Assembly: GCA_963797555.1 (NCBI GenBank)
Contig: CAWCPV010000007.1
Span: 148,085-212,084 of the forward strand
Direction: 5' to 3'
Source: an uncultured Gammaproteobacteria bacterium
GTDB taxonomy: Bacteria; Pseudomonadota; Gammaproteobacteria; CAWCPV01
DNA: 64,000 bases
The notes below the pieces were generated by a model that saw nothing but the letters and a program-made list of their open reading frames with translations, made no database searches and was not told the DNA's origin. How positions within the stretch are numbered: position 1 is the stretch's first letter; every line of letters starts with the position of its first letter. Below are positions 1-44,999 of this stretch, in pieces. A program made the translations under genes and the position numbers.

Positions 1-540
1 GGAGAGAACGATCCGCAGGCCGCGATCGCGAAAAAGCAGGCGGAGCTCGAGAGGCAGCGCATCGAGCTCGAGAAGAAGAGCCTGGAGCTGCGGCAGAAGG
101 AGCTCGACCTTGAGAAGTCGCGCAAGGAATTTCAGGCGCAGCAGAGCGGCCGTTCCCTCAGCATGAATCTTTCCGGCGACGTGCTCTTCGACTACGACCA
201 GGCGACGCTGAAGCCGGAAGCCGAACAGGCACTCAAGAAGGTGGCGGTAGTGCTTTCACAATTCCCCGAAAGCCAGGTGACGGTGGAAGGCTATGCCGAT
301 GCGAAAGGCACACAGACGGGGAACATGCAGCTGTCGCGCGAACGGGCTCAGGCGGTGAAGGACTGGCTGGTCAAGAACGGTGGCGTCCCGGCGGCCGACA
401 TCGCTACCAAGGGCTTTGGCGAGCAGTACCCGGTGGCAGCGAACACCAACCCGAACGGCACCGACAACCCGGTCGGTCGCGCGCTCAACCGACGAGTCTC
501 GATCATCGTCGAGAGAGCGGCGCAGCGACCACCGCCCTGA
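1..540 (+). CDS. OmpA-family protein, 5' partial (coiled-coil region followed by OmpA/MotB C-terminal peptidoglycan-binding domain)
   Basis: Frame 1 is open from base 1 (ELERQRIELEKK... coiled coil). The C-terminus carries the OmpA_C-like motif (TVEGYADAKGT...NMQLSRERAQAV...NRRVSI). Stop at 538-540. Confidence 0.8.
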   Translation, partial: GENDPQAAIAKKQAELERQRIELEKKSLELRQKELDLEKSRKEFQAQQSGRSLSMNLSGDVLFDYDQATLKPEAEQALKKVAVVLSQFPESQVTVEGYADAKGTQTGNMQLSRERAQAVKDWLVKNGGVPAADIATKGFGEQYPVAANTNPNGTDNPVGRALNRRVSIIVERAAQRPPP

Positions 541-567
541 CCGGCGGAGCAGGACCGCTACCGCCGG
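541..567 (+). terminator. GC-rich hairpin just after the OmpA-like stop (CCGGCGG-13 nt-CCGCCGG); no U-tract
   Basis: Perfect 7-bp inverted repeat at 541-547 / 561-567. Confidence 0.2.
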
Positions 568-612
568 GTCGACACCCACGTGGCGCCGCTGTCGGTGCTC
601 GTAAGCAGCTCG

Positions 613-876
613 CTATCTGTTCCCGCGTACACCGTGGTCGGGGTTGCCGGATCGGTCATTGAGCATGCGGACAATCAAACCGTCCAGGTCGGTCATTACA
701 CTCCACGTCTGACCCGCATCAGTCGATCTGAATGCCCCGCTGGCGGTCCCCTGGTAGACGGTGTCGGACTGGACCGGGTCGGTGGTCACGACCATGATCT
801 GCGTGTTTAGCACTCCGCTGCTTACGGCTGTCCAGCTCTCGGCGCCGTCACTGCTCTTGAAGATGCCCTCTGAGCT
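613..876 (-). pseudogene. BNR/Asp-box repeat protein fragment
   Basis: The C-terminal ~85 aa of minus-strand ORF 613..1077 carry two Asp-box (SxDxGxTW) repeats (SSDGAESW, STDAGQTW). The upstream part of that ORF overlaps the integrase fragment and does not look coding. Confidence 0.35.
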
Positions 877-1107
877 GCCGGCGTACAAAACCGTTGCACT
901 CGTCACCAGGCTCCAGACGGCGCCGCGAGCTACCTTGCCATGTCGGGAGCGGACATGCTCACCATCGCCGCGGTGCTGGGTCACAAGACGCTCTCCATGG
1001 TCAAGCGCTATGCGCACTTGAGCGACCAGCATCAAGGCGAAGCACTGGCACGCATGAATGCCATGCTGTTCGAGCAAATGTCCCGCCAGTGTCCCAAGAC
1101 CTTATGA
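874..1107 (+). pseudogene. Tyrosine recombinase (phage integrase) C-terminal fragment
   Basis: Frame-1 translation ...YLAMSGADMLTIAAVLGHKTLSMVKRYAHLSDQHQGEALARM...* is the conserved integrase C-terminus (LGH..L.M..RYaHL with catalytic Tyr). The frame is closed by TGA at 871-873, so only ~75 codons remain. Confidence 0.6.
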
Positions 1108-1139
1108 ATCCATTGCGGCACAGCGCACAGCGTAGATGC

Positions 1140-1790
1140 TCAGAACGAGTATCCGAAGGCATTGATGTCGCTGTAAAAGTGCTTTGCCACGAGTTCTGCC
1201 GTCTGGTCATCGTAGTACCTTCGATATGCTTGGCGATCCCTTGCTCTGCGCCTGTGCGGGAGCTGACGCGGCGCAATGCCGATGCGCCGGCATGCCTCGT
1301 CGAAATCCTCCTGCAGGTTCTCGTACCTCCCCACGTAATCCACGATGATTTCCCCGGACAGGTCCCGCACGTAATCCGATTGCAACTCCATGGAGGTGTC
1401 GACGATGTAATGGTAGGGGCGTTCCTTGTCGAGCTTCCAGCGGATGAAGGAAGGGAAGTCTTCTATCGCTGTCATCAAGTGGGGGCGTTCCCGCTGGATG
1501 TGGTGGTATGAGCTGACCTGCAAGTCCCAAGGGTTGCGTACAAAGGCGAACTTGAATAGCTCTTGGAACAGCTCCCGGGGAAGCATCTCCTTGGCCGCGA
1601 TCACCTTGGCGTGGCGCGGGAACCTGACGCCCAGGCGGTGTCCGGTCATAGCGCTCAGCCGACTGCAGATCAAGCGCGAAATACGATGGCGGTCCTTCCA
1701 ACGTTCCCACTGGAGTGCCCGGCGAATGCTGGTCCCCCCGGTCTTGGCGATGTGCACGAACAGGAACCGATGGCGGTAACAGAGCAGCAT
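1140..1790 (-). CDS. Sulfotransferase family protein
   Basis: 216-aa ORF with the 5'-PAPS-binding-like motif HIAKTGGTSI near the N-terminus, typical of bacterial carbohydrate sulfotransferases. Confidence 0.65.
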   Translation of the reverse strand: MLLCYRHRFLFVHIAKTGGTSIRRALQWERWKDRHRISRLICSRLSAMTGHRLGVRFPRHAKVIAAKEMLPRELFQELFKFAFVRNPWDLQVSSYHHIQRERPHLMTAIEDFPSFIRWKLDKERPYHYIVDTSMELQSDYVRDLSGEIIVDYVGRYENLQEDFDEACRRIGIAPRQLPHRRRARDRQAYRRYYDDQTAELVAKHFYSDINAFGYSF

Positions 1791-2043
1791 GCAAGTCTTG
1801 TCGGGAAGATCAGACCTCAGAGCGTGAGAATAAATCTGCGCGTGTCCCGATAACGGTGTTGGCGGTGTTCATGATGCACCTCCCTGTACCCCTTTGGGGC
1901 ATCGCGGACCTGCCGAATGGCTATCCTGCCATTCGGTCGCTCCTCGCCTATCTAGTTGATATGTGGCGTTGCTGCGCTCTGTGCATCTTCCTCGCGGGCC
2001 GCTCGCGACGATTTCTTCAAGACCTCTCAGGCTCGACCGCTCT

Positions 2044-3187
2044 TCACTGCTTCGCGGTCAACCCGAGCACCTCGAGGTAGGCCAGCGCGCTGGACTCCGA
2101 CCGGTAGGGCCCGACTGCCTGACGGAGAAATTCAGCGGCGGGCGGATTTTCCAGCGTGGCCTCTATGGCGTCAGCCAGGGCCATGGCATCACCCACTGGC
2201 ACGAGGCGTCCGAACCGGCCCCCCTGGAGTATCTCGCGCGGTCCGCTGGGACAATCCGTAGAGACGACCGGGATGCCGAGTGCCAGAGCCTCGGTCAGAA
2301 CGTTCGGGGAGCCCTCCCACGCAGAAGACAGCACAAACAGGGCGGAACCGGCCATGTAGGCGTAGGGATTCCCGACAAATCCCGGCAATGAGAACGTCTT
2401 CGGCAATGCCCAAGCGACGTGCCAGAGACTCGAGGCCAGAGCGGTCATGGCCCTCGCCAAGGATGATCAGACGACAGCGCCGCATGGCCCGCACCCGCGC
2501 AAAAGCGTGCAGCAGAGTGGGGAAGTCTTTCTGACGGGTCAACCTGCCGGCTCCCAGGACGAGAGGAGGCTTACCCGGCCGAAGCCAGGGATGGTCGGAT
2601 TCCTGCCGCGCTGAGGCGAGGATCTCGGGCGTAACTACCGGGTTGCGTACGACCAGGATGCGCTCCCGCGGCAGACCGGTGATCCGGGCAGTGTCGGCTG
2701 CAACGCCTTCGGAGACCGCAATGATGTTGTCGGTCCACCGATAAAACAGGCGCATGGGCAGATAGCGAGACCAGCGAGCTGCCGCGCCTTTGCCTTTCAG
2801 GGAAGCGGAGAGATGCGTGCCAAGGCGGATGGTGACGGGGGTATCGACCCCGCTCAGGCGCCTGGCGATCAGGGCCGCCCGGCCCGCTCGATCCTTGACC
2901 GCAAGGAGAGCCTTTGGACGATGGCGGCGCAGATACCGCACCAGTTTCGGGATGCTGGTGATGGCGTGTCGGCGGCCCAACGGCACGACATTGACTTGCG
3001 GCGGTATGGCCTTCAGATGGGCACTTTGAGCCCGCACCAACAGCAGATCCACGGGGACCGCGAGGCGAGCGAGCTCCCGGAGCAAGTTCGCGACCATACG
3101 TTCTACCCCACCGGACCCAGAGAAGGAAACGAGGACGGCCAGCCGTTGGCGTTCGGAGAGCGAGTCGGGAGAGCTTGCCGTCGTCAA
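2044..3187 (-). CDS. GT4 glycosyltransferase with an apparent +1 frameshift near 2390-2398
   Basis: ORF 2189..3187 encodes the GT4 N-domain through ...LGIAEDV. ORF 2044..2460 in the +1 frame encodes the rest ([13 protein letters not shown]...[31 protein letters not shown]). The frames switch at GACGTT(C)TCATTG. Confidence 0.75.
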
Positions 3188-3442
3188 TGTGCGCGATCGA
3201 CTAATCGGGTGCTGAGCCTACGATTGCTCCTGGAAAACGCCCAGGACCCTCAAGGGGTTCTCTGAACGCTCCATGGTCCTGATCGGCGGGGAGAAGGTAT
3301 ACTCGGCAGCTTCCGCGACGCGAGCACGCCCGTCGCTGGCGGCCGAAAAGGTTTTGTCCGAACAGGCGATGTCAAAGGTCTCCGCAACGTCCATCCCCGG
3401 CACTCAGCACATTATACAGGTCCGGCGTATGCTGCCGACGCG

Positions 3443-4527
3443 TCAGGTGGCACGGCCTGCGAGCCCCATCGCTTGCAGATAAGCAGACGTGGCCCGTTCG
3501 ATCTCGTAGGGTAGCGCGGCCTCCCTCAGGAGAGACCTCGGGAGTGGATCATCTAGGGTCTCCAGGATGGCGCGCGCTATGGCGTCGGAGTCGCCTACGG
3601 TTACCAGGGCTCCGTACCGGCCGTCCCCAAGTATCTCGCGGGGTCCGCTCGGGCAATCGGTCGAAACGACCGCAGTGCCGAGTGCGAGTGCTTCGATAAG
3701 CACCATCCCGAGGCCTTCCCACTTGGAGGTGAGCGCGAGGAGCTTTGCATGGGCCATGTACGGATACGGGTTCGACTGAAATCCCGGTAGGTCGAAGTCG
3801 TCGGCAACGCCGAGTGCCCGAGCCAGCGCTTGGAGTCGGGGTCTATCCCTGCCCTCTCCCAAGATAAGCAGGCGGCAGAGCCGCTCGCGGCGTACCCGTG
3901 CGAACGCGTGCAACAGCGTCTCGAAGTCCTTCCTCGCGCTCAGCTCACCGACCCCTAGGATGACCGCTGGCTGGCCCGCCCCGAACCATGAGTGCGGGGG
4001 CAGGGGCTGCTCCGTGTCAAAAAGGGTGCGGGGAACGACGGGGCTCGGCACCACGGCGATCCGGGATAGGTCTAGGCCAGTATACTGCGCCATGTCGGTG
4101 GCGACGCCGTGCGAGGGAACCGCGATGGTGTCCGCGTACCGATACAGATGGCCCATGGAGATCCTCTGCATCCAGCGATCGAGTGGGCGCCGGCTGGCGA
4201 GATCCCGGGATACCGTCGTGCCCGAGCGCAGCACCAGGTGGGTGCGCGTGCGGGCCAGGGCCCTTGCCAACAGGGCGACGCGGTTGACCCTGTCCTTGTC
4301 CGACAGCATAGCTGTCGGGTGTTCCCGCCTCAGGTAGCGCACCACGGCCATCAAGGCCGTATAGACGTGGGAGGTCCCCAGGTCTATGACGCGAACGGCC
4401 GGGCCGTCGATCGCCGGGCCGTGCTGGCGAACGTGCAGCAGGTCTACCGAGTAGCCACGTCGCGCGATGGCCGGAAGCAGGTGCTGCGCAATCCGGTCCA
4501 CGCCGCTGTGTCCGGAAGTCGCAAGGA
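3443..4527 (-). CDS. GT4 glycosyltransferase, intact (probable GTG start)
   Basis: The C-terminal 360 aa of ORF 3443..6412 form a complete GT4 fold (FFLATSGHSGVDRIAQ... LPGFQSNPYPYM... [30 protein letters not shown]). No ATG is present; the start is assumed to be GTG at about 4527. Confidence 0.65.
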
Positions 4528-4595
4528 AGAAGGACACGGTTTTATCAGTACGCGGCGGGAAACGGTTGCGGGGTGTTCCCCGGATGGGGTACGGG

Positions 4596-6412
4596 TCAGA
4601 CAATCCAGGACAATGGGTCTTCGTCCGGGGTCGGCAGGACACCGGGGCTGTCGATGAACAGGCGATGCCAGATGGCGAATTGCAGCAGGGACCAGATCTC
4701 CCGGGAAACCGGGTGTCCTGCCCGCTGGGCTTCGAGCATCTCTCGCACCCCCTGAGGGCAGAACCAGGCCTGGATGGCGGGGTGGCGAGGAAGGTGGGCG
4801 ATGAATGGTCGAGCACCGGGCCGCGCAGCCACTCTCCCACAGGGACGTGGAAGCCGCGCTTTCTGCGGCGCAGGTGGCCACGCGGCAGCATTGGCTGGGC
4901 CCAGGCTTTCAGAAGAACCTTGCCATGCCGGGAGCGCACCTTGAGCTGGTCGGGGAGTGATAGTCCGAACTCGAGGATGCGATGGTCGAGAAAGGGGACG
5001 CGGCCTTCGACGCCGAAGGCCATGAGCATCCGGTCCACCTTGACCAGCAAGTTATCAGGAAGGGCTGTCCGGATGTCGACATACTGCCTGCGCTGCAGAG
5101 CGCTCCAGCCTTCCGGGCAGGACTGCCACGCCTCTATGAAGGGTAGCCGCGCCGCTGCCCGGGCGGCGGCGAGCTCTGGCCCGAAGACCCGGCTGATCCA
5201 GCGGCGCTGCCATCGGCTGCGGGTACGGAAGCCGCCCGACCCCGGCGCCGTGAGATTCTTGAGCCAAGACTTGGCCGGCGATGCGCGGTAGCGCCCATAG
5301 CCGGCGAAGACTTCGTCCCCACCTTCCCCCGTAAAGACCACTTTTAGCTCCTGACCAGCGCGTTCCGCGAGGATGGACATCGGCAGACACGCATAGTCCA
5401 ACATGAGGTCGTCGGCCGCCCACACCGTATGCGGGAGATGACGGAACAGGCTGCGCAGGTCGAGGGTGAGAGGAGTGTGACGGGCGTTGAAGTGCCGGGC
5501 AATGCGGTCCGCGTCGGCCAGCTCGTCCTTCATCTCCACCCCGGTGTAGCCCACCGAGAAGGTCTGAATGGGCCGCTCCTGGGCGCGCGTAAGCAACGCC
5601 AAGAGGGCCGCGGAGTCAGCGCCTCCCGACAGGAACAATCCGTATGGAACGTCGGAGCGCAGGTGCTCGCGCATGACGACATTCATCAACTCGTCGAAGG
5701 TCTCCCGAGCGTCCTCGAAGCAATAGCGCTGAGGCGCGACGTCCAGGGCCGACCAGTAGCGCCAGGCCTCCATCTGCAGATCGGCCCGGATGGCGATCGC
5801 CTCGCCCGGGAGGACCCGGTGGATGCCCTGGAGGATGGTCTCCCGACCCGTGTGGAACTGGTTATGGAGGAACTGGGCCAGAGCGCCCGGGTGGATCTGC
5901 GGTGTGCGCGGGAGCTGCGGCAGAAGGGCCTTGATCTCCGAACCGAATACGATTCGGTCGGGCAGGACCGCGTAGTAAAGTGGCTTGATACCCAGCCGGT
6001 CACGGGCCAGGACCAACTCCTTGCGCGCACGGTCGTAGAGGGCGAACGCGAACATTCCGTGCAGATGACCTAGGAACTGGCGCCCGTACAAGGCATAGGC
6101 GTGGAGGATGGTCTCGCTGTCGGAGCGGGTGGCGAAGCGGTAGCCGCTGTGTTGCAGTTCGGCCATCAGCTCGACGTAGTTGTAGACCTCGCCGTTCGCC
6201 ACTAGGGCCAGCCTGGCCCCGTCGGCGAGGAGTGGCTGGTGTCCTCCACCAACGTCGATAATGGACAGGCGAGTATGGGCAAGACCAACTGGCCCATCGG
6301 TGTGGATGCCCACATCATCGGGCCCTCGATGACGGAGCAGGTCGCCCATGCGCCGCAGCTCATCGTCACGCGCCGCGCCCGCCCGCAGATAGATGCCAGC
6401 GATACCACACAT
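4596..6412 (-). CDS. asnB: Asparagine synthetase (glutamine-hydrolysing) AsnB-like amidotransferase, apparent frameshift near 4775-4835
   Basis: N-terminus MCGIAGIY (Ntn glutaminase Cys2), then the SGGADS PP-loop (LFLSGGADSAALLAL). The C-terminal tail (AIQAWFCPQGVREMLEAQRAG...LLQFAIWHRLF) lies in a different frame (ORF 4596..4832). The 989-aa read-through ORF is an artefact of stop-poor GC-rich DNA. Confidence 0.75.
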
Positions 6413-6581
6413 CTCGATTACCCGTCAGGCGGCCGTTGCCCCTCTTGCCGCAGCGCTGCTCCCGGTCGCTCCCGCTGGCGAGTCAAGGGACAGACGCTCC
6501 ACGCGCGCGGACCTCACGACGCTCGTGTGCTCGGGGACGAGGGGGAAGAAGGAGGTGACGGTAGAGATTCTGCAGGCCCGC

Positions 6582-7728
6582 TCAATTCCGCTGGCTCCGG
6601 CTGTTGGCAGAGAGCCCGAGGGCAAGCAGGTACTCTTGGCTACTCGCCTCCAGGGTGTACCTACGCGCGGCAGACTGCAGCAAATCGCGCGGGCGTGAGT
6701 CAGCCAGGGCGGCGAGCATGGCTTGCGCCATGGCGGTAGGGTCCCCGACCGGCACCAGCCGACCGAAGCGGCCGTCCCCCAGGATCTCTCGCGGTCCGGT
6801 GGGACAGTCGGTGGAGACCACGGGCAGCCCCAGGGCCAATGCCTCCACAAGGACGGCGCCGAAGCCCTCCCAGAGGGAGGACAGCACGAACAAATCGGCA
6901 GCGGCCATGTAGGGATAAGGGTTGGGTTCGAAGCCCGGCAGCGAGAACGTCGCCCTGGACGCCGAGTTCCCGGCTGAGGGCTTCTAGACGCTGCCGCTGC
7001 CTGCCCTCGCCGAGGATGATCAGACGGCAGGGCCGCTGGCGGCGCATTGCGGCAAAGGCCCGCAGCAGCGTCTGAAAGTCCTTCTGGCGCCGGAGGCCGC
7101 CGACCCCCAGTATCACTGGCGTCTCCTTGTGAAGAAGCCAGGCATGAGGGAGCGGCGCGTTGGCCAGCCGCTCCAACTCCGGCGTTACGACAGGGTTCGG
7201 GACCACTCGGACGCGGTCACTCGGAAGACCGGTTATTCTCACTACATCCTCGGCGACGCCGCGCGAGACGGCGACAACGCCGTCCGCCCTGGCGTACATC
7301 CGACGGACCGCGCGTAACTTGCGCCAGCGGTACAGCCCTCCCCGGCCACGCGCCTCGAGCCGGCCCGACAGGCTGGTTCCAGTGATCAGGACGCAGCGCA
7401 CCGGAACCCCAGCCCAACGCTTGGCGCGCAGCGAGAGGCGGTCGTCGCTGCCTTTCCCGGAAAGGACCACGTGCGGTCGCGCGGCTCGCAGGTAGCGAAC
7501 TGTGGCGAGAAGCGCCCGCACGCCACGCGAGGAGCCGATCTCCAGCAGCCTGGCCTGCGGGGGCAGCGACGCCAGGGAACGAGCGGTGGCCTGCCGCACC
7601 ACGAAGTCCACTGTGACGCCGCGCTGGACCATGCCGCCGGCCAGGTTCACCAGCATGCGTTCCACACCACCGTCACCGAAGGAGGGTATGAAGACGCAAA
7701 GCCTGTATGGGGGCTCACGGCTGTCCAT
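6582..7728 (-). CDS. GT4 glycosyltransferase with an apparent +1 frameshift near 6943-6951
   Basis: ORF 6700..7728 carries the N-domain to ...LGVQGDV. ORF 6582..6908 in the +1 frame carries the C-domain (preceded in-frame by [13 protein letters not shown]). The junction sequence GACGTT(C)TCGCTG matches the context at 2390-2398. Confidence 0.75.
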
Positions 7729-7975
7729 TGCGCTCCCCGGAACCGTCAGAGCGCGGGCTGACGCCCGGGTACTCGCGGATACGGATCTCGCCGCCGAGGC
7801 TCTGCAGTGCCTGGCGCTGACTTCCCTGGTTCAACAGGACCAGCCGACCGCGCCGTTCCGGGCGGCCCACCCCCAACGGTGCCGGGGCTCGCCGACGGGA
7901 ACCCAGCGGTGGGCCGCGCGCTCGCGCGACACCGCGTAGATCCGGACTGACGAGGGGTTTGCCCATGATCTGGAT

Positions 7976-8290
7976 TCATCGCTCGGGTGCATTGAACAGG
8001 ATGGCTAAGTCATCTGCCACCTCACGGGAGACGGGTCTGAGGTCGTCGTTTTGCGGGTAGTAGTGGTGCACGTAACGGTATTGTGACCGCCTCTTGGCCC
8101 CGAGTACACTTACAAATTTATGCGCAGGCGGGTGTCCGCAGCGGAGTAGACTCGTTGTGCCGCGGCCAAGGCGGCGAGCCCGCAAGGCCGCGACTTTGGC
8201 GAGGATGCGGGACGCGAGCGGCCCTTCCGGTAAGTAGCGGCGCTCTGCGGCCCACCGATCGGCGAAAGCATTGACGAGATCGATGCGCAT
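7976..8290 (-). CDS. Hypothetical protein (104 aa)
   Basis: ORF only; no recognisable motif. It sits between a GT4 gene and the ligase-family gene. Confidence 0.3.
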   Translation of the reverse strand: MRIDLVNAFADRWAAERRYLPEGPLASRILAKVAALRARRLGRGTTSLLRCGHPPAHKFVSVLGAKRRSQYRYVHHYYPQNDDLRPVSREVADDLAILFNAPER

Positions 8291-8403
8291 CTTCCCGCTG
8301 CCGACCGGGGAGCCGGGCAGTCCACCAGGACTGCGAAGCGCCTCGGGTACGGGTCGCGGCCGAGCTGCCGTAGGCTGGAGAGCGTCGTTTTGGAACTGGA
8401 CCG

Positions 8404-9912
8404 GTGCGCAAGCGTGTGCCAGCGCGTGCGCCGAATTATACCCGATTCCGTATCTTTCCCACTGACCGCATCGTTACGAGCGTCGACCCGGCTGCGCCCT
8501 CGCCGGGCTCCGCGCTTTCACCAGGGAGCAGGCAGTTACCCCGTCCGGCGGAGAAAATCGTGGCCTTAGGGGTGTCCCCGCCGGAGCGGGTCGTGCCACG
8601 AGTGGCCCATGCGGCCTTGCTGGGGTTTGCCCTGACGGCCTGGATCAGCACGCCCGTAGCCAGCGTCTGCCTGGCCTTGCTATCGATCACCTTCGTGGCG
8701 GACAGGGACACGCCCTGGCGGGACCTTCAGCGGGATCCCATGATGGTGCTATTCGCGGTCTCTCTTGTGTATCTTTCGGCGCGAACACTCTGGGGGGTCT
8801 TGGAGTGGCCGGAGACGGTGCACAAACAGGTGGGGGAGTCCCTGGACTGGTCCAAGCTCTGGGTGTTTTTGCTGGTGGCGTGGTGGCTGCGCGGCGAAGT
8901 GCGCGGGATCCTGCAGGTAATGGGGTTGGCGCTGGTGGGGCTGCTCGTAGGCACGGCGTCCAACCTGAACCCACAGAAGCTAGGGGACGTGCTGGCCGGG
9001 CTCCGGCCCCATCTGGAGTTCCCCGCGCTCGGCTTCGGACTGTACACCGCCACCGCGGTCCTGGGCGTGTTGCTGTTCGCCACGCGCATATGGGGCACGA
9101 CGCAGCGGCCGGGGCGCTTCGCCGCTAGAGTGGCAGCCTGGCTCGCGGTCCTGGTTGTCTTGGTCCAGGGGGTGATCACCTCGCAGTCGCGGGCTACCTG
9201 GATCGCGGTCCTCGTCGTATTTCCGCCGCTGCTGGTGTTGAGAGTAGTTCCCTGGCTGCGGGCGCCGGGGAAGGGGCGTGGGCCGCGGACCCGCTGGCCG
9301 ATCGTCTTGGCTGGGCTGGTCATTTTGGGGCTGGTCGGCGCGAATCTGGGACCCATCAAGCACCGGCTGCTGCAGGAGCGGTCGAGTATCCACGCGGTAT
9401 TCTCGGGTCGTTGGCAGCAGCTTCCGCCCCAGGACTCGGTCAGTTATCGGGCGCATCTCTACCGGCTCGGGCTGGACCGCTGGCTAGAGCGACCCTTTTT
9501 CGGATGGGGTCCGGGAAGTGCTGCTCGCCTGATTCAGCAGAGCGATATCCCTGCCATTCGCCAGTTCAAGGAGTTTCACAATTCTTATCTGGATGTCCTG
9601 GTTCGCATGGGGCTTGTCGGTGCCTGTCTCATGGGGGTTGGGTTCTGGCTGTTGCTGAGGGCCTTGTGGCGCGCCCGCCGCGCAGGGTCGCTCCCGCTGG
9701 ACGCTTTCTTGTGTTTAGGGGGCGCGTTCGCCCTCCTGGCGGTGTGGAGCGCCGGGGACTTTCGCATGGTGCACGCGGATTGGCGCTTCTATTGGGTCAT
9801 CTTCGCGGGGTCGGCATACACGTTTCAGCTGCGTACGAATGCGCACCCATCGACACCGACGCGGAGCGGGCACCGATTGCCAGGACGTGCGATTCGGCAC
9901 GGCCAGACCTAG
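8404..9912 (+). CDS. O-antigen ligase / Wzy_C-family polytopic membrane protein (true start probably downstream of 8404)
   Basis: Multiple predicted TM helices plus the Wzy_C signature region (...RQFKEFHNSYLDVLVRMGLVG...). The first ~50 codons are Pro/Ser/Arg-rich and look non-native. Confidence 0.7.
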   Translation: MRKRVPARAPNYTRFRIFPTDRIVTSVDPAAPSPGSALSPGSRQLPRPAEKIVALGVSPPERVVPRVAHAALLGFALTAWISTPVASVCLALLSITFVADRDTPWRDLQRDPMMVLFAVSLVYLSARTLWGVLEWPETVHKQVGESLDWSKLWVFLLVAWWLRGEVRGILQVMGLALVGLLVGTASNLNPQKLGDVLAGLRPHLEFPALGFGLYTATAVLGVLLFATRIWGTTQRPGRFAARVAAWLAVLVVLVQGVITSQSRATWIAVLVVFPPLLVLRVVPWLRAPGKGRGPRTRWPIVLAGLVILGLVGANLGPIKHRLLQERSSIHAVFSGRWQQLPPQDSVSYRAHLYRLGLDRWLERPFFGWGPGSAARLIQQSDIPAIRQFKEFHNSYLDVLVRMGLVGACLMGVGFWLLLRALWRARRAGSLPLDAFLCLGGAFALLAVWSAGDFRMVHADWRFYWVIFAGSAYTFQLRTNAHPSTPTRSGHRLPGRAIRHGQT

Positions 9913-10994
9913 CGTCGGAGCACATCCTCGTAAACGTTCACGTTCCCCGCGACCATCCGCTCGATGGAGAACTCTCTCTCCGCGATCTGGCGTCCCGCCG
10001 CGCCCATAGAGCGGGCTCCAGCGGGATCCGCGAGGAGGCGCTGTATGGCGCTGGCGAGACCCTGGGAATCGCCGGGCGGGACCAAGTAGCCGTTCACGCC
10101 GTCATGCACGACCTCCGGGACCCCGCCCGCTCGGGCACCTGCAATAGGCACTCCGGAGGCCGCCGCCTGCAACAGGGAGACGCCTAGGCCCTCCGTGAGG
10201 GCGGCATGTGCCACCAAATCGAGACATGGGAGTACGCGATGCAGGTCTGAACGGAAGCCCGCGAGGCGTACGTACTCGGTGAGTGCGTTCGTCCTGCACA
10301 GCCGGCGTATCTCGCTCTCCAGGGGGCCTCGCCCGAACAGCAGGAACCGCACGGCGGGAAACCGGCTCGCCACGGCCGGCACAGCCTCCAGGACGTAGCG
10401 GTGACCTTTACGCTCGATGAGTTGGGCGATGACACCCACGGCCCGTGTCTCCGGCGACAGTCCAAACTCCGCCTCGAACCATGCGCGCTCGCATGGAAAG
10501 TCATACGCGCCCGGGTCGACGGCGCTGTGCACGCATACCACGTGTCTCTCTGGGACACCCTCGCGCAGAAGCACCTGACGTATCGCCTGGGAAATGGCGA
10601 TCACTCGGTCGTAGAGGCCGTATTTCCAGCGAGCCAGCCAGCCCGGTTCGGGGTTGTCGTTGCGGCGGCTATAGACACGTTTCATTCCCAGATGCCGTGC
10701 CACGATACCGCCCCAGAGGTCGGCCCCGAGGCGGCTGTGGACGTGCACGAGGTCCGGGCGTTCCCGTGCGATGAGTGCCCTGAGACGCAGCGGGAACAAC
10801 GGGTCCAGGTCCCGGTGCAGAGGAATGGCGTGAACCGTATCGGCCGGGCCCACCGCGCGCGATGCGATGGCGCTTCCGCGGGGGCACACCAAAACGTTGT
10901 GGTACCCACGCGCCTTGAGGCCCTCTAGAAGGTACAGCACCTGCGCGGCTCCGCCATAGAGGTGCCTCCCCGCTTCGACATGCAGAACCTTCAC
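9909..10994 (-). CDS. GT4 glycosyltransferase (intact)
   Basis: 361 aa with GT4 N- and C-domains (EGLGVSLLQAAASGVPIAGARAGGVPEVV). Its stop overlaps the ligase gene by 4 bp. Confidence 0.8.
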   Translation of the reverse strand: MKVLHVEAGRHLYGGAAQVLYLLEGLKARGYHNVLVCPRGSAIASRAVGPADTVHAIPLHRDLDPLFPLRLRALIARERPDLVHVHSRLGADLWGGIVARHLGMKRVYSRRNDNPEPGWLARWKYGLYDRVIAISQAIRQVLLREGVPERHVVCVHSAVDPGAYDFPCERAWFEAEFGLSPETRAVGVIAQLIERKGHRYVLEAVPAVASRFPAVRFLLFGRGPLESEIRRLCRTNALTEYVRLAGFRSDLHRVLPCLDLVAHAALTEGLGVSLLQAAASGVPIAGARAGGVPEVVHDGVNGYLVPPGDSQGLASAIQRLLADPAGARSMGAAGRQIAEREFSIERMVAGNVNVYEDVLRR

Positions 10995-12085
10995 CCGCGC
11001 ACTTCCGCCGCGGACAGAAGTCGCTGCGCCGTCGCCAACACCTGCTCTACATCGATACTACGCATGCACGTATAGGCGCCGTTGCAGGTTGGGTGCCGAC
11101 GGCACGGAGAGCACGGTAGGCGGTGATACAGTACCGCGGCCTGCGGCATGGCCGGATCGAGGTAGGGGCGCGTCGAACCGAACAGTGCGAGCGTGGGGAC
11201 TCCGAGGGCGATGCCCAGATGCGTTAGGCCAGTATCGACGCCTACCAGGAGCGAGGCCCCTCGGATGGTGGCTGCGGCCTGACCGATGGTTGTCCGCCCA
11301 GTCAAATCCTCGATACAGGTAGGGGCTAACTCATGGATGCGCTGCGCTGCGGGGGTATCCGCACCTGAACCAAGGATGAGCGCCGGCAAGGACTGTGCCT
11401 GTGCCAGCCTTCTGGCGAGGTCCGCCCACCGTTCGTCCACCCAGTGTTTTTGGGGGCGGGTCGTGAAAGGGCAGAAGACTGCATAGCGAGCGCGGAGTCT
11501 GAGTGCCTTCAGACAGTCGCCGACCGCCTGCTCATCGTCGCGGCCGACGGCAACGTCCATGGGGAAGTCCCCCGGGGACAACTCAAGGTCCTTGGCCAAG
11601 CGGAAATATTCCGATCCGATACGCGGGTCATTGGGCGGGCGGTCGACCACCCGCGTCATCAGCAGCGCGCTCCCCTCTCTGGACCCCAAGCCGACGCGCT
11701 CGCCCGCTCCAGACAGGTACGCCCAGAGTGCGCTCTTCAGGAGCCCCTGGAGATCTAGGACGATGTCGAAACGCCGACGCCGAAGCTGCCGGGTGAAGTC
11801 TCGGACCTGCCGATATAGCGCGGGCAGTCGCCGGGTCCGGGCTAGTTGGCGCCAGCGGTGCCGCGGCCACACGATGACCTCATCCAGAGCGCGGTTGTGT
11901 TTCAGCAGGTCCTGTGCGGGCGGCTCCACGAGCCAGGCGAGGTAGGCTTGGGGATGGGCGCGGCGCAAAACTGGTATCAGGGCCGAGGCCATCACCACGT
12001 CGCCGATGGCACTCAGCCGAATGATGAGGATCCTCGGAGAGGCCCCCGGCTTCGCGGCGGCAGCCGGATCGCTAGCTGGTCTCAT
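10991..12085 (-). CDS. ADP-heptose:LPS heptosyltransferase (GT9, WaaC/WaaF/WaaQ-like)
   Basis: N-terminal motif ILIIRLSAIGDVV and a C-terminal GVDTGLTHLGIALGVPTLALFG region are typical of GT9. Confidence 0.8.
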   Translation of the reverse strand: MRPASDPAAAAKPGASPRILIIRLSAIGDVVMASALIPVLRRAHPQAYLAWLVEPPAQDLLKHNRALDEVIVWPRHRWRQLARTRRLPALYRQVRDFTRQLRRRRFDIVLDLQGLLKSALWAYLSGAGERVGLGSREGSALLMTRVVDRPPNDPRIGSEYFRLAKDLELSPGDFPMDVAVGRDDEQAVGDCLKALRLRARYAVFCPFTTRPQKHWVDERWADLARRLAQAQSLPALILGSGADTPAAQRIHELAPTCIEDLTGRTTIGQAAATIRGASLLVGVDTGLTHLGIALGVPTLALFGSTRPYLDPAMPQAAVLYHRLPCSPCRRHPTCNGAYTCMRSIDVEQVLATAQRLLSAAEVRG

Positions 12086-12102
12086 AGTGTACCCGATGGA
12101 CT

Positions 12103-13183
12103 CTAGCGAGCCCGGTGGGAGAGCTCGTCGTACATCGCGAGATAGGCGTCCAACACTAAGTGCTGGTTGTGACGCTCTTTCAGGACGCGGCTTCCATGAG
12201 CAATCAGCTCCGCCCGCAATGCAGCGGGTGCGCGCAGCAGGTCAAGAAGGCGCTCGGCTAGGGCATGGGGGTCCCTGCAGGGCACCAGTAGTCCATTGAC
12301 GCTGTCGTCGATCAGCTCCGCGGCACCGAGCGTGCGTGTCGCGACCACCGGAAGCCCGTGGCTCCACGCCTCGAGAATCACGTTGCCCAGGGGCTCGTGA
12401 CGGGAGGGACATACGAACACATCGGCGAGCTGATAGAAGGGGTCAGGGCGGTTCTGCCAGCCCGGCCAGCGCACCCGCTCGGCCACGCCCGCCTCGTCGG
12501 ACTGTGCCTGAAGCACAGCGCGCAGCGGCCCGTCGCCGATGATGATCAAGTACAGCGGTCTGCCATCCACGTCCGGAGGCAACTCCCGGAAGGCGCGCAG
12601 CAGGTCGCCGAAGCCCTTGACAGGGTGGAAGCGCCCGGCCGCGAGCAGAATCACGGCGTCGGGCGGGATGCCAAGGGTTTCCCGTAGCGCCTCGAATCTC
12701 CTGGCGTGGGAGGTCGGCCACATCCTCTACGAAGTTCCCGATGAAATAGACAGAACGTGCGGGCAGTCCCTCGCGGACCAAGTACTCACACACCCCGCGG
12801 GTATTTCCGACCCAGGCGTGGGCGTGGCGGTAGTAGCCATTGAGCTTGTAATAGCCGCCGAGCCGCGCCACGTGCACCGCGTTGCCTCGATGAGGTAAGC
12901 GCGTCAGACGCGTGGCCCTGCCCATGTAAGTTTGCACGATGGCGGGGCGGCGGCTGCGCACCAGTCGGCGGATGCGCCACACGGACAACACATCCCAGAT
13001 GTTGCGCATCGGGATGTGCACCTGCTCCACCGCGCCTTCCAGGGCTCGGGCGATCGGGGTCTTCGGCCGGGTCACGGCCAGCGCATGATGACCAGCTTCG
13101 TTCAGGGCGCGCACCAGACGCACGTAGAAGCGGTCAGCGCCGCCGAACTGGCGGCTGCCGATGACGTGCAGGGAGTCAATCAC
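12103..13183 (-). CDS. GT4 glycosyltransferase with an apparent frameshift near 12700-12730
   Basis: ORF 12443..13183 gives the GT4 N-domain up to ...VYFIGNFVEDV. ORF 12103..12723 gives the C-domain (RRFEALRETLGIPPDAVILLAAGRFHPVKG...EPLGNVILEAWSHGLPVVAT). Confidence 0.7.
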
Positions 13184-23889: not shown

Positions 23890-25704
23890 ATGCCGAAAGT
23901 CCGTAAAGGCTCCCGCTCCCCCTCCCTGGTGCCGAAAAAGCTCACCCGGGAGCGGGACCAGGTGCTCGAGTTCGTGCGTCGGGGTCAACAGCTCGCGAAC
24001 GTTCTCGATGACCCCGGCCTCAGCGGGGAGATCGACCAGCTTTCCGCCAGTGCCCTGAAGCCTTTTTTGTTCGTCGTCGTGGGCGAGGTCAAGTCCGGCA
24101 AGAGCAGCCTCATCAACGCTCTGCTGGAGGCCCCGGTGTGCGCCGTGGACAGTGCCCCCTGCACGACGCGTGTGCAGGAGATCAGCTACGCGGAGGAGGA
24201 GAGCCGCACCGAGGTCTCCGAGTTCGAGGAGCACCTGCACCTGCCCCATGCCATCCTGCGGCACATCGCCATCGTCGACACTCCCGGCACCAACTCCATC
24301 ATTCGTGAGCACCAGCGCATCACCGAGAACTACATCCCCCAGAGCGACCTGGTGCTGTTCGTGTTCTTCGCGAAGAACCCTTACACCGGGAGCGCCTGGG
24401 ACTTCCTGCGCTACATCAAACACGACTGGCAGCGCAACACCCTGTTCGTACTCCAGCAGGCGGACCTGCTGGATGCCGGGGAATTGGAGCGCACGCTATC
24501 GCTGGTCAAGCAGCAGCTCGCCGAAGAGAGCATTGCCGAGCCCGTCGTCTTCCCGGTCTCCGTGCTCACCGCTGAAGGCTTGGACGTGCTGCGCGAGTAC
24601 CTGCGCATCGAGGTGGTTCAGGGGCGGCAATTCAATAAGAGCATCTCGCTGACACACAACGTCCTGCGTTTCTTGCGCCGCCTGGAAGCCGCCTTGCGCG
24701 ATCACGAATGCCTCCTGCAGAACGATGAGACGTTGCTGGGCGAGCTGCGCCAACTGGCCGTCGGGTTGGGGCCGGAAGCGGACCAGGAATACGCGGCCCT
24801 GACGGCGAGGGCGCGGCACTACGCGGACGAGGCGCGACAGTGGCTGTTCGGGCAGGCCGTCGCGGCCGGCAGCTCGGGTGCTGATGTTGCCCGGGCCGGC
24901 TGGAGCTGGCGGGACTGGCGCTCGCTCCGGGAGCGCATGCGGCGCCTCGGGGCGGCTCTCGCGGAGCGCGCCGCGGTCGGGGAGGCTCTGTCCAGCGGCT
25001 GGGACAGGTCGCTGCGTACCGCCGAGCGCTTCAACCGGCTGCAGCTCGACCTGAACCGCTGTCTGTTTCGGGCACAGTTGCGGCGTATCGACCTCTACCG
25101 ACAACTGAAACGGCAGGTGGAGCAGCAGCTCGCTGCCATCGCCGCCGATCCCCCGTGCCTTGCGAAACCGCTCGACGATGCGCTCGCGCGCGGGCGTCAG
25201 CGAACCCTCACCCGGGCCCGCGACGCGGTCCAGAGCCTCGGCGAGCTCGGCCTGGAGGGCTCCATCTCGCGGCTTCCCGCGCTGAGCGCGCTGAGGCCCT
25301 GGTCGTCTGTCTACGGAGTCGCTCAGGTTGGTGCCGGGGCGGCTTGCCTGGTCGTCGGCTACCGCCTGGACGATCTGCTGGCGGGCTTGCTGCTCGGCGT
25401 GGTGGGCTATCTGGGAGCCGGGTACGCTCTGGCCCGTCGGAGCCGGGCGCGTATCGGCGGACAGGCCGCGGCTGCGCTGGAGAAGAGCATCGAGGACGTC
25501 GACCGGCGGCTGCGCGAGACCCTCCTGACCCAGCCCCCCGAGCTGCAGGGCGCCATGCAGGATACCGTGGGCCGGTTCGAGCGCGACCTCGAGGAGCGGC
25601 GGGCTCGAACCGAAGAGCTGCTTCCCTCGGTCAACGCCTTGCGCGAGGACATCAAGCGCTTTCAATCGGAGGTGTGGGCCGATGCGGTGGAGGGTGACCA
25701 GTGA
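23890..25704 (+). CDS. Bacterial dynamin-like GTPase (BDLP), paralogue 1
   Basis: Dynamin-type G domain: G1 VVVGEVKSGKSSLINALL, G3 DTPGTN and a QQADLL block, followed by long helical stalk-like regions. Confidence 0.75.
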   Translation: MPKVRKGSRSPSLVPKKLTRERDQVLEFVRRGQQLANVLDDPGLSGEIDQLSASALKPFLFVVVGEVKSGKSSLINALLEAPVCAVDSAPCTTRVQEISYAEEESRTEVSEFEEHLHLPHAILRHIAIVDTPGTNSIIREHQRITENYIPQSDLVLFVFFAKNPYTGSAWDFLRYIKHDWQRNTLFVLQQADLLDAGELERTLSLVKQQLAEESIAEPVVFPVSVLTAEGLDVLREYLRIEVVQGRQFNKSISLTHNVLRFLRRLEAALRDHECLLQNDETLLGELRQLAVGLGPEADQEYAALTARARHYADEARQWLFGQAVAAGSSGADVARAGWSWRDWRSLRERMRRLGAALAERAAVGEALSSGWDRSLRTAERFNRLQLDLNRCLFRAQLRRIDLYRQLKRQVEQQLAAIAADPPCLAKPLDDALARGRQRTLTRARDAVQSLGELGLEGSISRLPALSALRPWSSVYGVAQVGAGAACLVVGYRLDDLLAGLLLGVVGYLGAGYALARRSRARIGGQAAAALEKSIEDVDRRLRETLLTQPPELQGAMQDTVGRFERDLEERRARTEELLPSVNALREDIKRFQSEVWADAVEGDQ

Positions 25705-36304: not shown

Positions 36305-36632
36305 CTAATACTCCTCCGAGGTGGCCACCGACACGCCGAGCCGGACGATCCGCGTCACTTTGTCGAGCGATCCCAAATGCTGTCTCGCAACCGCGAGGGC
36401 GTTGAGCGCCGCGAGGTGGGCCGCCTTGCGCCCCGCTTCCACATCGAGCTCCGCGCCGACGCGCCCAATGAATTTCGCCCCGCGGCCTTCCGTGGGAAGC
36501 ATGCCGGTCAGGAAACAGCAGGTTGCCCGGTCTGCACCGCCTCCACATAGATGCCGAACGGCTCCGGCGGCGCCGGGAGCTTGATGCCGAGCTCGGCGAG
36601 ACGGTCCTCGGCGGTCGTTGAGTTTGTGGTCA
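36305..36632 (-). pseudogene. RidA/YjgF-family-like gene, frameshifted and apparently truncated
   Basis: ATG at ~36632 gives MTTNSTTAEDRLAELGIKLPAPPEPFGIYVEAVQTG. A second frame (36305..36502) continues ...GRVGAELDVEAGRKAAHLAALNALAVARQHLGSLDKVTRIVRLGVSV. The usual C-terminal ~40 aa were not found. Confidence 0.35.
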
Positions 36633-36651
36633 TGACGAAAGCTCCTTTCAA

Positions 36652-37380
36652 TTACCAGCGGCCGAAATGAGCGCCGCCATCGACGTACAGGATGTCACCA
36701 GTGACCGTCGCGGCGTCGGTCAGGTACATGACCGCGTCCGTGATGTCCTTGACGTCGAAGGCCGACCCATCGGCGACAGGCTCTCCATCACGTCCTTCGG
36801 AGTCTCCCGGTGAAGCGGCGTGTCGACGACGCCCGGCGCGACGGCGTTCACGCGAATGCCGTCTTTCGCGTACTCCATCGCCAGGTGCTGGGTGATCGTT
36901 TCAAGACCGCCTTTGGTGATCATCGGCACCGCCGCCGTGACGCCCCGGATCGGGTTGCGAGCAAGGGCCGCCGTGATCGTGACGATGCTCCCGCCGGTCT
37001 TCTGCGCTAACATTTGCTTGATGCAGAGTTGGGTGACGTACAGGAAGCCCTCGAGGTTCGTCGAGACGAGCGACTTGAAGTCCTCGGCCGTGTAGTCCGT
37101 GAACGGCTTGGTGAAGAAGATGCCGGCGTTATTGACCAGCGCGTCGATCGACTTGAAGCGAGATAGCGCCGTCTCGACGATCTTGGCGGCAGTTGCCGGC
37201 TCGCCGATGTGGCCGTCCACCAGAGCGACGCTGGTCGGAAGCCGCGACCTCGGTGGATTGGGTCACCTTCCGGGAATTGGCAACGACGTTGAAACCCCGT
37301 TCGACAAACCCTTTCACGATTCCCGCGCCGATTCCCTGCGAAGCTCCGGTCACGATGGCTGTCTTCCGTGGGCCGCTCAT
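36652..37380 (-). CDS. SDR-family short-chain dehydrogenase with two apparent frameshifts (~37230 and ~36790)
   Basis: N-terminal TGASQGIGAGIV Rossmann motif (ORF 37129..37380), catalytic middle (ORF 36720..37220, NNAG...) and C-terminal ...AFDVKDITDAVMYLTDAATVTGDILYVDGGAHFGRW* in a third frame ending at 36652. Confidence 0.6.
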
Positions 37381-37435
37381 GGTTGTTTACCTCGAAAACG
37401 TCTTGTCACTGGAAAAAATTCGATGGTCAAGCGGA

Positions 37436-38443
37436 TCAGAAATCCGCGTCCAGCACGATGCGGTAACGGGCCTTGCCTGATTCAAGTCGGGCGAAGGCCT
37501 CGTTGATCTTGCTCATCGGGAAGTGCTCGGTCTGCGGCGCGATATTGTGCCGTGAAGCAAAGTCGAGCATCGTCTCGATCGCCACCGGCGAGCCGGTCGG
37601 CGAACCCGAGACGCTGCGCTGCTGCACGATGAGCGAGAACGCCGCGACCGGGATCGGTTCCAGCACGGCGCCGACGACGTGCAGCCGGCCGTTGGGCGCG
37701 AGCGTGCCGATCATCGCGTCCCAATCGAGCTTCACGTTGACGGTGCTGATCAGGAGGTCGAAGCTGCCGCCGAGTTTCTTGATCGCCGCCGAGTCCTTGC
37801 TCGACACGACGTGATTCGCCCCGAAACCTTTGGCTTCATCGAACTTGCTCTCGCTCGACGTGAACGCGGTCACGTCGCAGCCGTAGGCGGCGGCGAACTT
37901 CACGGCCATGTGCCCCAACCCGCCGATGCCGATGATGCCCACCCGGTCGGTCGGCTTGGCGTACATCGCCAGCGGCGCGAAGACGGTGATGCCCCCGCAC
38001 AAGAGCGGCCCGGCTTCGGCGAAGTTCAGCTTTTCCGGCAGCGGGATGGCCCAAGCCCAGTGCGAGCGGATGTGGGTCGCGAACCCGCCGCGATGACCGA
38101 CGATGGTCGCTTGCACTTGCGGGCAAAGGTGATGGCTTCCCGACATGCACTGGTGACAGTGCATGCAGCTGCCCGAGTTCCAGCCGACGCCGACGCGCTG
38201 TCCGACCTTGAGACCCTTGGCATTCGGACCTATGGCCGTGACCCGACCGATGACCTCGTGGCCGAGAATCGCGGGGTACTGCGAAATGCCCCAGTCATTG
38301 TTCAAGACGGAGAGATCGGAGTGACACAAACCGCAGTGTTCGACAGCGACTTCAACGTCCTCGGCCCCGAGCGGTCCGAGATCAACGGTTTCGAGCACCA
38401 TCGGCTGCTTCGCCGCCTTCGCAACCCATGCCTTATCATTCAT
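37436..38443 (-). CDS. Zn-dependent alcohol dehydrogenase (cinnamyl-alcohol-DH / YahK-like, NADP type)
   Basis: Start at the ATG at 38441-38443 (MNDKAWVAKAAKQP...). Has GHEVIG, the structural-zinc CxxCxxC cluster (CMHCHQCMSGSHHLC) and GIGGLGHMAVKFA. Confidence 0.8.
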   Translation of the reverse strand: MNDKAWVAKAAKQPMVLETVDLGPLGAEDVEVAVEHCGLCHSDLSVLNNDWGISQYPAILGHEVIGRVTAIGPNAKGLKVGQRVGVGWNSGSCMHCHQCMSGSHHLCPQVQATIVGHRGGFATHIRSHWAWAIPLPEKLNFAEAGPLLCGGITVFAPLAMYAKPTDRVGIIGIGGLGHMAVKFAAAYGCDVTAFTSSESKFDEAKGFGANHVVSSKDSAAIKKLGGSFDLLISTVNVKLDWDAMIGTLAPNGRLHVVGAVLEPIPVAAFSLIVQQRSVSGSPTGSPVAIETMLDFASRHNIAPQTEHFPMSKINEAFARLESGKARYRIVLDADF

Positions 38444-41472: not shown

Positions 41473-41500
41473 GCCGAGCCCGGCCCCCCGCAGGCCACGC

Positions 41501-44991: not shown

Positions 44992-44999
44992 GACCCGCC

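Follow-up and report, generated by a model that had tools for sequence, protein, structure and literature searches.

The matching frame breaks that split two GT4 glycosyltransferase genes in this 64,000-nucleotide stretch of DNA (the window) most probably represent one and the same artefact, a context-specific consensus error in a long-read assembly; we put the probability of this reading at roughly 0.85. An earlier note had described +1 breaks at the same 9-mer in both genes and had offered a context-specific systematic sequencing indel as one explanation. The reading frames bear out the breaks, and the explanation is supported: the affected site differs among three assemblies, no break is seen in either gene in the nearest relatives (four JGI contigs, three samples), the window is full of other breaks, and sequence differences are enriched at a short motif. 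The features concerned are as follows.

2044..3187, minus strand: GT_A, a GT4 glycosyltransferase of ~380 aa after repair (Pfam Glyco_trans_4_4 and Glycos_transf_1), split in the window into an N-terminal frame (2189-3187, minus) and a C-terminal frame (2044-2460, minus)
2390..2398, minus strand: break site of GT_A, GACGTTCTC, with one T too many at 2393-2394
3443..4537, minus strand: GT_B, an in-frame GT4 paralogue of 364 aa with DDFDLPGF; a separate 364-aa gene is also called on sister contig L091
4596..6412, minus strand: AsnB-type asparagine synthase, 605 aa in the sister lineage, frame-broken in the window
6582..7728, minus strand: GT_C, a GT4 glycosyltransferase of 381 aa after repair with both Pfam halves and intact versions elsewhere, split in the window into an N-terminal frame (6700-7728, minus) and a C-terminal frame (6582-6983, minus)
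6943..6951, minus strand: break site of GT_C, GACGTTCTC, with one surplus base
12103..13183, minus strand: another GT4 gene, the fourth, with a frame break here and a 359-aa product elsewhere

The N-domain frame of GT_A ends at ...LGIAEDV and the C-domain frame restarts one base on, at GACGTTCTCATTG (2390-2398, minus); that of GT_C ends at ...LGVQGDV, after which the C-domain frame restarts at GACGTTCTCGCTG (6943-6951, minus). Both genes thus require a +1 shift at GACGTTCTC, which reads GAGAACGTC on the plus strand. The third paralogue, GT_B, is in frame with DDFDLPGF, as reported earlier. GT_A and GT_C are 48.7% identical rather than the 35–40% first estimated, and the argument that their shared break does not come from a recently duplicated pseudogene is correct even at this closer relationship. 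The surplus base itself had been taken for a C, whereas related contigs place it at one of two T's, GACGT[T]CTC. From these alignments, the true sequence would be GAA GAC GTC TCA TTG (EDVSL) in GT_A and GAC GTC TCG CTG (DVSL) in GT_C. The window has three copies of the 9-mer (0.63 expected). Its sharing by the two genes is not a chance match, because it covers homologous Asp-Val-Ser codons of paralogues and because the sister lineage described below carries the 17-mer GACGTCTCGCTGCCGGG at both sites. The third copy (56735, plus) was uninformative as a test case, since its position upstream of a Tn5-like transposase is non-coding. GAC GTT is moreover an atypical way of writing these codons, since GTT is seldom used for Val (5.8 per 1000 vs 28.8 per 1000 for GTC).

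Orthologues in other genomes are in frame at this site. A sister lineage with 93–95% nucleotide identity to the window (JGI contigs L010, L091, L092 and L093; samples 3300056867, 3300056868 and 3300056876) reads GACGT-CTC at both sites, giving DVSLPGF in frame, and all of its cluster genes are intact (GT4-359, GT9, GT-361, Wzy, GT_C of 381 aa, AsnB of 605 aa, GT_B of 364 aa and GT_A). Across coding DNA, the window and this lineage differ by >560 substitutions and by only four 1-nt indels, at 2394, 4804, 6946 and 12695, each of which breaks a gene (GT_A, AsnB, GT_C and the fourth GT4, respectively). The closest intact relative of GT_A (P0241, 350 aa, on L010; ~95% nucleotide identity) reads GAAGACG-TCTCGCTG, and the missing T is the only indel within the GT_A coding sequence. 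At the GT_C site three sister contigs read GGCGACGT-CTCGCTGCCGGG, and the intact 381-aa protein is encoded on ENA contig_99629 (P0243), Logan L008 and JGI L091/L092/L093 (P0358, P0359). The AsnB break is a C missing at ~4804 (GACCAT-TCATCG) that is present in ENA, Logan and sister contigs, and the 989-aa open reading frame at 3443-6412 is therefore an artefactual GT_B-AsnB fusion. The fourth GT4 gene is broken by an extra base at 12695, where GATC is read as GAATC (plus strand), and the same three sets of contigs encode it whole at 359 aa.

The same holds for more distant relatives. Orthologues P0001-P0008 and P0244-P0247 have D(V/L)(S/A)LPGF in frame, no interruption is seen in 78/80 species-level loci, and intact orthologues are found at each distance compared (~94% nucleotide identity, and 73–76% and 50–63% protein identity). 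ONT-derived MFD bins were considered for testing whether the error recurs and set aside, the GACGTCTC context being found in 0/80 orthologous loci. Pattern scans of metagenome contigs for the GT_A and GT_C sites gave no match, the best match in a scan of genome contigs was only 63% identical, and exact look-ups of the window proteins at 23890-25704 and 3443-4537 found no match; a look-up of a 58-aa open reading frame returned contig L096, which ends before the GT_A site.

Assemblies of the same organism disagree about the very bases in question. We compared the window with ENA ERZ25039463 contig_99629 (99.84% identical) and with Logan contigs from ERR11718635 (99.88–100% identical). The GT_C site exists in three versions, GACGTTCTCGCTG in the window, GACGTTC-CGCTG (DVPL) in ENA and GACGTTCT-GCTG (DVLL) in Logan, so that GT_C is in frame in both other assemblies, each by a different sequence. 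The GT_A site exists in two: the window's, and GAA-ACG-TCTCATTG in ENA contig_99629, which is a different break. AsnB and GT4-359 are in frame in both assemblies, and the three-way comparison also reveals private breaks elsewhere in each of them.

Logan contig L009 carries exactly the window's GACGTTCTCATTG at GT_A, an observation that runs against an artefact. The same contig has a gene-breaking indel of its own at 4324, and in L008 the invariant E of the PREIL motif is replaced by D; both features suggest that the Logan data are noisy, and we did not accept these contigs as short-read truth. The Logan paper does not describe any filtering by platform. If ERR11718635 consists of short-read data, the extra T in GT_A would be real in these strains. 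Substitutions between assemblies are mostly synonymous (nine vs three non-synonymous) and some are common to the sister lineage, which rules out that all inter-assembly differences are errors and indicates real strain diversity alongside them.

Frame breaks are common throughout the window. A frame-tracking scan finds about 16–17 in 64 kb, or ~1 per 4 kb, spread over unrelated genes, several of them backed by split Pfam domains (SDR, MbnB, DruA, glyoxalase, IS66 and others). Those at 36753 and 37231 are in frame in ENA contig L094. The breaks fall, among other places, at a G6 run, at GG and TT called as GGG and TTT, and at GATC called as GATTC. GACGTC/GAACGTC sites differ between assemblies of the same organism in 5/10 cases vs 2.5% of random 12-nt windows, and ACGTC adjoins 4/20 indel loci vs a 2.5% background (P = 0.0014), both tests being post hoc and based on small numbers. 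The error is not deterministic: 11 copies of GACGTC and two of GACGTCTC stand undisturbed in the window, which rules out that every GACGTC(TC) is miscalled.

These patterns are consistent with the following mechanism, of which the platform, the methylation and the behaviour of the reads are all inferred. The true coding strand at the Asp-Val-Ser codons of GT_A and GT_C would be GAC GTC TCN, to which the window adds one spurious T. The source would be a long-read assembly, most likely nanopore, as judged from Flye-style contig names, a 619.5-kb metagenomic contig and an indel-dominated error profile, and residual 1-nt consensus indels would remain about every 4 kb. Such indels appear to cluster at homopolymers and at two GA..TC palindromes, with GATC turning into GAATC or GATTC and GACGTC into GAACGTC or AACGTC. 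A modified base in these motifs, probably N6-methyladenine, may disturb basecalling, such that reads disagree (G, A or GA) and the extra base stays in the consensus. A base modification at GACGTC is probably linked to the consensus error.

Comparable errors are known from nanopore data. Documented G-to-A and A-to-G errors cluster at methylation motifs of bacteria and can affect more than 50% of reads (bioRxiv 10.64898/2026.01.14.699587; see also PMC11610573 and PMC11610603). The present case resembles them in being tied to short motifs (GATC, GACGTC), in G/A confusion beside a putatively methylated A, and in calls that differ across same-strain assemblies and produce apparent SNPs and frameshifts. 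It differs in that the errors described in these reports are mainly substitutions (bioRxiv 10.64898/2026.01.14.699587; PMC11610573, PMC11610603) whereas 1-nt insertions are central here, in that platform and methylation are deduced here, and in the one-sided synonymous G/A pattern described below, which is unlike a pure error model. Homopolymer or low-coverage indels, which raise the pseudogene counts of metagenome-assembled genomes built from long reads alone, are a second parallel: the window shares with them the rate of ~1 break per 4 kb, breaks at G6, GG and TT runs that are repaired in other assemblies, and the origin in a 619.5-kb metagenomic contig. The GT4 sites, however, are not homopolymers and have a specific 8-mer context in common.

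The frameshifts could instead be genuine mutations in a decaying cluster, with at least the GT_A +T real in several strains and GACGTC acting as a hotspot of mutation or selection (restriction-site avoidance, methylation-linked mutagenesis). The GT_A insertion shared with Logan L009 fits this idea, as do the properties of the motif: sister-lineage GACGTC sites are conserved in the window in 0/6 cases vs 141/218 for other palindromic hexamers, GAC-GTT is over-represented as a dicodon (P = 8e-4), G/A changes at GACGTC sites all fall on the synonymous GTC-to-GTT side of the coding strand, and at position 5738 the window has GACGTC where the sister has GATGTC. The one-sidedness of the G/A changes would be expected of real evolution and is not predicted by a symmetric error model, and the 9:3 synonymous excess among inter-assembly substitutions likewise reflects real strain diversity. 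Yet two other assemblies have GT_C in frame, with three sequences at one 3-nt spot among strains ~0.1% apart, and the ENA contig breaks GT_A differently at the same spot. Two independent insertions are implausible, because harmless synonymous changes could remove GACGTC. Two substitutions adjoining the GT_A site (TCG to TCA and CTG to TTG) leave the protein unchanged when read in the downstream frame, which has therefore been under selection, and the ~16 other breaks in unrelated genes, several repaired elsewhere, point to technical noise. We consider genuine frameshifts unlikely. The specific version in which GACGTC is unstable or purged in this lineage, through a recent AatII-like restriction-modification system or methylation-linked mutagenesis, with the GT_A +T a real site-destroying insertion in several strains, is slightly less likely again; if it were true, the pattern would record ongoing restriction-site avoidance within a natural population and not sequencing noise. 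Alternatively, the artefact could stem from collapsed strain heterogeneity, which would have merged two coexisting in-frame haplotypes, GACGT-CTCGCTG and GACGTTCT-GCTG, into GACGTTCTCGCTG by retaining the columns of both in the consensus, with no base modification involved. The window's GT_C is the exact union of the sister-like and Logan sequences, microdiversity between assemblies is real and mostly synonymous, and discrepancies and Logan contig breaks concentrate at 2–7 kb. But an unusual Val-Leu haplotype with three adjacent substitutions would be required in both paralogues and is not seen for GT_A, and GATC insertions and homopolymer errors would be left unexplained, making this account improbable.

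Two further accounts can be named, and we regard each as having almost no chance of being right. Gene conversion would have copied the frameshift from one paralogue pseudogene to the other, and the identical 9-mer and TGCCGGG at homologous positions are what it would leave. The identity nevertheless spans only 9 + 7 bases, with 61/111 flanking positions matching, too short for a conversion tract, and the 17-mer is already present without the extra base in the sister lineage, indicating ancestral codon conservation. A programmed +1 ribosomal frameshift conserved in two paralogues draws only on the common 9-mer and shift direction. The earlier note had raised such a conserved recoding site and named the check that refutes it: orthologues in other genomes are in frame, the closest without the extra base and more distant ones too, as is GT_C in other assemblies of the same organism. 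The sequence context also argues against it. GUU is followed in the 0 frame by CUC, which is common (37.7 per 1000), and the next 0-frame stop lies 67 (GT_A) to 81 (GT_C) codons away, so a slow A-site codon is lacking. By the standard of +1 sites such as CUU-UGA-C in prfB, tRNA-Val on GUU cannot re-pair with UUC; codon-anticodon rules thus suggest that a slip from GUU to UUC would lack cognate re-pairing. In alignment, no Shine-Dalgarno-like stimulator is common to the two sites, whose upstream 20 nt differ (GCATTGCCGAA vs CGTCCAGGGC). The likeness to prfB (RF2) is accordingly confined to the +1 direction: the GT_A/GT_C site is not conserved in orthologues and has neither an in-frame stop or rare codon at the shift, nor +1 re-pairing, nor a common upstream SD-like element.

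With a consensus error as the preferred reading, GT_A and GT_C are probably ordinary, intact GT4 glycosyltransferases of a surface-polysaccharide cluster. We assigned proteins to GT4 if an N-terminal Glyco_transf_4/Glyco_trans_4_4 and a C-terminal Glycos_transf_1 domain both scored above the Pfam gathering scores, and repaired GT_A, repaired GT_C and native GT_B exceed these in both halves (for example, 110–120 bits for PF00534 and 35–67 bits for PF13579/PF13439). Relatives carry both domains in a single open reading frame, with thousands of full-length homologues. Both Pfam halves are also shared with GT4 enzymes of O-antigen and exopolysaccharide clusters; the neighbours here are a Wzy_C-domain protein, a GT9 heptosyltransferase-like gene, an AsnB-type amidotransferase, a sulfotransferase and an ABC exporter, and without the extra base there is nothing unusual in GT_A or GT_C.

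False frame breaks occur about once per 4 kb in the window, and presumably at a like rate across the entire 619.5-kb contig and its genome bin. Pseudogene counts, fused open reading frames (such as the 989-aa "AsnB-GT4") and candidate recoding sites from this bin should be verified against reads or relatives. More generally, motif-specific long-read errors, here an extra A/T or a G/A swap at GACGTC and GATC, can mimic a conserved frameshift in paralogues. The finding implies no new glycosyltransferase biology and its value is mainly practical, although the error contexts hint at the methylation motifs of the organism.

The "+1 frameshift" shared by GT_A and GT_C, two GT4 glycosyltransferase paralogues, is almost certainly an artefact of long-read assembly, tied to local sequence context in a noisy contig. 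Both lie among four minus-strand genes at window 2044-7728, and a fourth GT4 gene is also broken.

Glycosyltransferase and neighboring genes
2044-3187, minus strand: GT_A, GT4 gene, frame-broken in the window
3443-4537, minus strand: GT_B, GT4 gene, in frame (DDFDLPGF)
4596-6412, minus strand: AsnB-type asparagine synthase, frame-broken near 4804
6582-7728, minus strand: GT_C, GT4 gene, frame-broken in the window
12103-13183: fourth GT4 gene, 359 aa elsewhere, broken at 12695 by an extra base

Translation bears out both breaks and the open frame of GT_B: GT_A reads ...LGIAEDV in one frame and resumes in the +1 frame at GACGTTCTCATTG (2390-2398), and GT_C makes the same switch at GACGTTCTCGCTG (6943-6951). 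After skipping one base where broken, GT_A, GT_B, and GT_C are complete GT4 enzymes by Pfam; GT_A and GT_C are 48.7% identical, somewhat more than the earlier note estimated. AsnB lacks one C at ~4804 (GACCAT-TCATCG), which joins it to GT_B in a 989-aa ORF (3443-6412), and at 12695 GATC has become GAATC on the plus strand. Neither of these two breaks is found in ENA or Logan assemblies of the same organism or in sister-lineage contigs (sister AsnB, 605 aa).

The ENA sequence, ERZ25039463 contig_99629 (22 kb, Flye-style name), was reached via P0006 (266 aa, truncated), which has 96% identity to GT_A, and matches window 1-13097 at 99.84% identity (7 mismatches, 14 gap columns). Logan contigs from run ERR11718635, added by exact look-ups of neighboring window proteins, cover window 104-24085. 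The window itself comes from a 619,545-bp contig present in NCBI and ENA.

The two break sites in three assemblies of the same organism
GT_C site: window GACGTTCTCGCTG (broken); ENA GACGTTC-CGCTG (in frame, DVPL); Logan GACGTTCT-GCTG (in frame, DVLL)
GT_A site: window GAAGACGTTCTCATTG (broken); ENA GAA-ACG-TCTCATTG (different break); Logan as window

The set of broken genes differs between every pair of these assemblies. AsnB and GT_B together have seven indels private to contig_99629, and GT_B has one, at 4324, private to the Logan contig. This last break and a substitution of D for E in PREIL, an otherwise invariant motif, suggest that the Logan data are noisy long reads. No platform filter is mentioned in the Logan paper, and literature searches for the run and assembly accessions found nothing. 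Substitutions between same-organism assemblies (window 1-24085 and 36614-49780, compared with L001-L009 and L094) are predominantly synonymous changes at third positions (9:3), which shows real diversity among strains, and some also occur in the sister lineage. Divergence between the assemblies is higher in two stretches, 36.6-38.5 kb and 42.8-43.1 kb. The overall pattern indicates real strain microdiversity, possibly with recombination.

Intact near-relatives came from cluster look-ups (P0241 for GT_A; P0358 and P0359 for GT_C). They lie on four JGI contigs of a sister lineage (L010, L091, L092, and L093; three samples), which are 93-95% identical to the window in nucleotides. L091 (11.2 kb) holds the whole cluster with no gene broken (GT4-359, GT9, GT-361, Wzy, GT_C 381 aa, AsnB 605 aa, GT_B 364 aa). 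The flanks of both sites align identically, except that the relatives read GACGT-CTC (GAC GTC TCG CTG, DVSL), so the base in excess is a T within GACGTC, not the C on which the earlier note had placed it. Alongside more than 560 substitutions, coding DNA shows just four indels (2394, 4804, 6946, and 12695), each of which breaks a gene in the window. Multi-base indels relative to the sister lineage occur in intergenic DNA (6489-6550, 3257-3336, and 7870-8164), and the AsnB-GT_C intergenic region is ~45 bases longer in the window. More distant orthologues (P0001-P0008, P0244-P0247) read D(V/L)(S/A)LPGF, all in frame as in the sister contigs, and orthologues are uninterrupted in 78/80 species-level genomic loci. 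Discordance among same-organism assemblies at both sites, and a sister lineage without the extra T, favor the earlier suggestion of a context-specific systematic sequencing indel.

A real insertion in GT_A, where the Logan contig carries the same extra T as the window, is improbable, and one in GT_C is considerably more so. Read in the downstream frame, the two substitutions adjoining the GT_A site (TCG to TCA, CTG to TTG) are silent, a sign that this frame has been under selection. Nothing supports programmed recoding at both sites, the other explanation originally offered: the shift site is unconserved, orthologues are in frame, and no slow codon is present, GUU being followed by the common CUC (37.7 per 1000). 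Moreover, the 0-frame meets no stop for a further 67 (GT_A) to 81 (GT_C) codons, GUU to UUC offers no re-pairing, and the sequences upstream of the two sites are unlike. Gene conversion between GT_A and GT_C is unlikely because identity extends over only 9 + 7 bases and a 17-mer without the extra T is already common to both sites in the sister lineage.

Frame breaks extend across the window. Tracking the reading frame by codon usage pointed to many switches of frame on the same strand, and single Pfam domains are split between frames (SDR, MbnB/DUF692, DruA, glyoxalase, and IS66 transposase); by eye, a RidA-like gene, a DDE_Tnp_1_4 transposase, and the TPR tail of a NACHT-like ATPase are also broken. 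The total is ~16-17 breaks in 64 kb, including the first four.

Further breaks, in unrelated genes
~29662: DDE_Tnp_1_4 transposase
~34833: IS66 transposase
~36532: RidA-like gene
36753 and 37231: SDR (two breaks)
~41720: glyoxalase
~44676: MbnB/DUF692
~52794: DruA
60064-60719: TPR tail of the NACHT-like ATPase

Across all breaks of the window, the contexts are those of typical long-read consensus error: a G6 run (MbnB/DUF692), GG read as GGG, TT as TTT, GG as G, and GATC with a doubled A/T (12695, ~52794; GATTC in DruA). At both SDR breaks (36753 and 37231), the frame is intact in a second ENA contig, L094 (window 36614-49780). L094 does not depart from the window sequence at the breaks in MbnB and the glyoxalase, and it appears to carry those breaks as well. 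Pfam labels on L094 mark a bufferin-like RiPP gene cluster at ~42805-45287, minus strand.

Members of the bufferin-like cluster
45000-45287, minus strand: BufA1/DUF2282 precursor
44123-45000, minus strand: MbnB/DUF692, frame-broken
43316-43975, minus strand: HvfC_N/DUF2063 gene
~42843-43319, minus strand: DoxX

The frame-broken DruA (Druantia) domain protein lies at 52429-53389, minus strand. A small minus-strand gene at 55910-56438, split over three frames, resembles a REP-associated tyrosine transposase by eye (motifs HLHCVW and HVDYIHWNPVKHG), with no Pfam match at E < 0.01. It adjoins an intact Tn5-like transposase (56941-58287, plus strand), and the non-coding DNA between them holds a third copy of GACGTTCTC (56735).

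Among same-organism assemblies, 5/10 comparable GACGTC/GAACGTC sites are discordant (2.5% of random 12-nt windows), the base preceding ACGTC being variously called G, A, or GA. ACGTC lies beside 4/20 indel loci (2.5% background, P = 0.0014, test chosen post hoc). Eleven GACGTC and 2 GACGTCTC copies in the window are undisturbed, so the error is not deterministic.

Unstable GACGTC sites
2392, 3386, 5376, 5738, 6251, 6945, 11552, 39489

The window keeps 0/6 sister-lineage GACGTC sites, compared with 141/218 other palindromic hexamers, and mostly reads AACGTC or GAACGTC there. G/A changes at these sites all fall on the synonymous side, and the GAC-GTT dicodon is enriched (7:6 vs. 65:422, P = 8e-4). 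Two readings fit this pattern: all three assemblies systematically miscall a modified motif, or the site is genuinely being lost in the lineage.

The insertions at 2394, 6946, 12695, and ~52794 (the last placed from reading frame alone) are each an extra A after the G of a G-A-(CG)-T-C palindrome on the plus strand. The adenine in these palindromes may be methylated, and reads would then disagree at it; published nanopore data show G/A errors that gather at methylation motifs of bacteria, sometimes in more than 50% of reads (bioRxiv 10.64898/2026.01.14.699587). The window's GT_C sequence is the exact union of the sister-like and Logan calls, suggesting that the consensus merged two alternative read-level calls. 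The genes themselves encode GT4 glycosyltransferases of ordinary type and belong to a surface-polysaccharide cluster.
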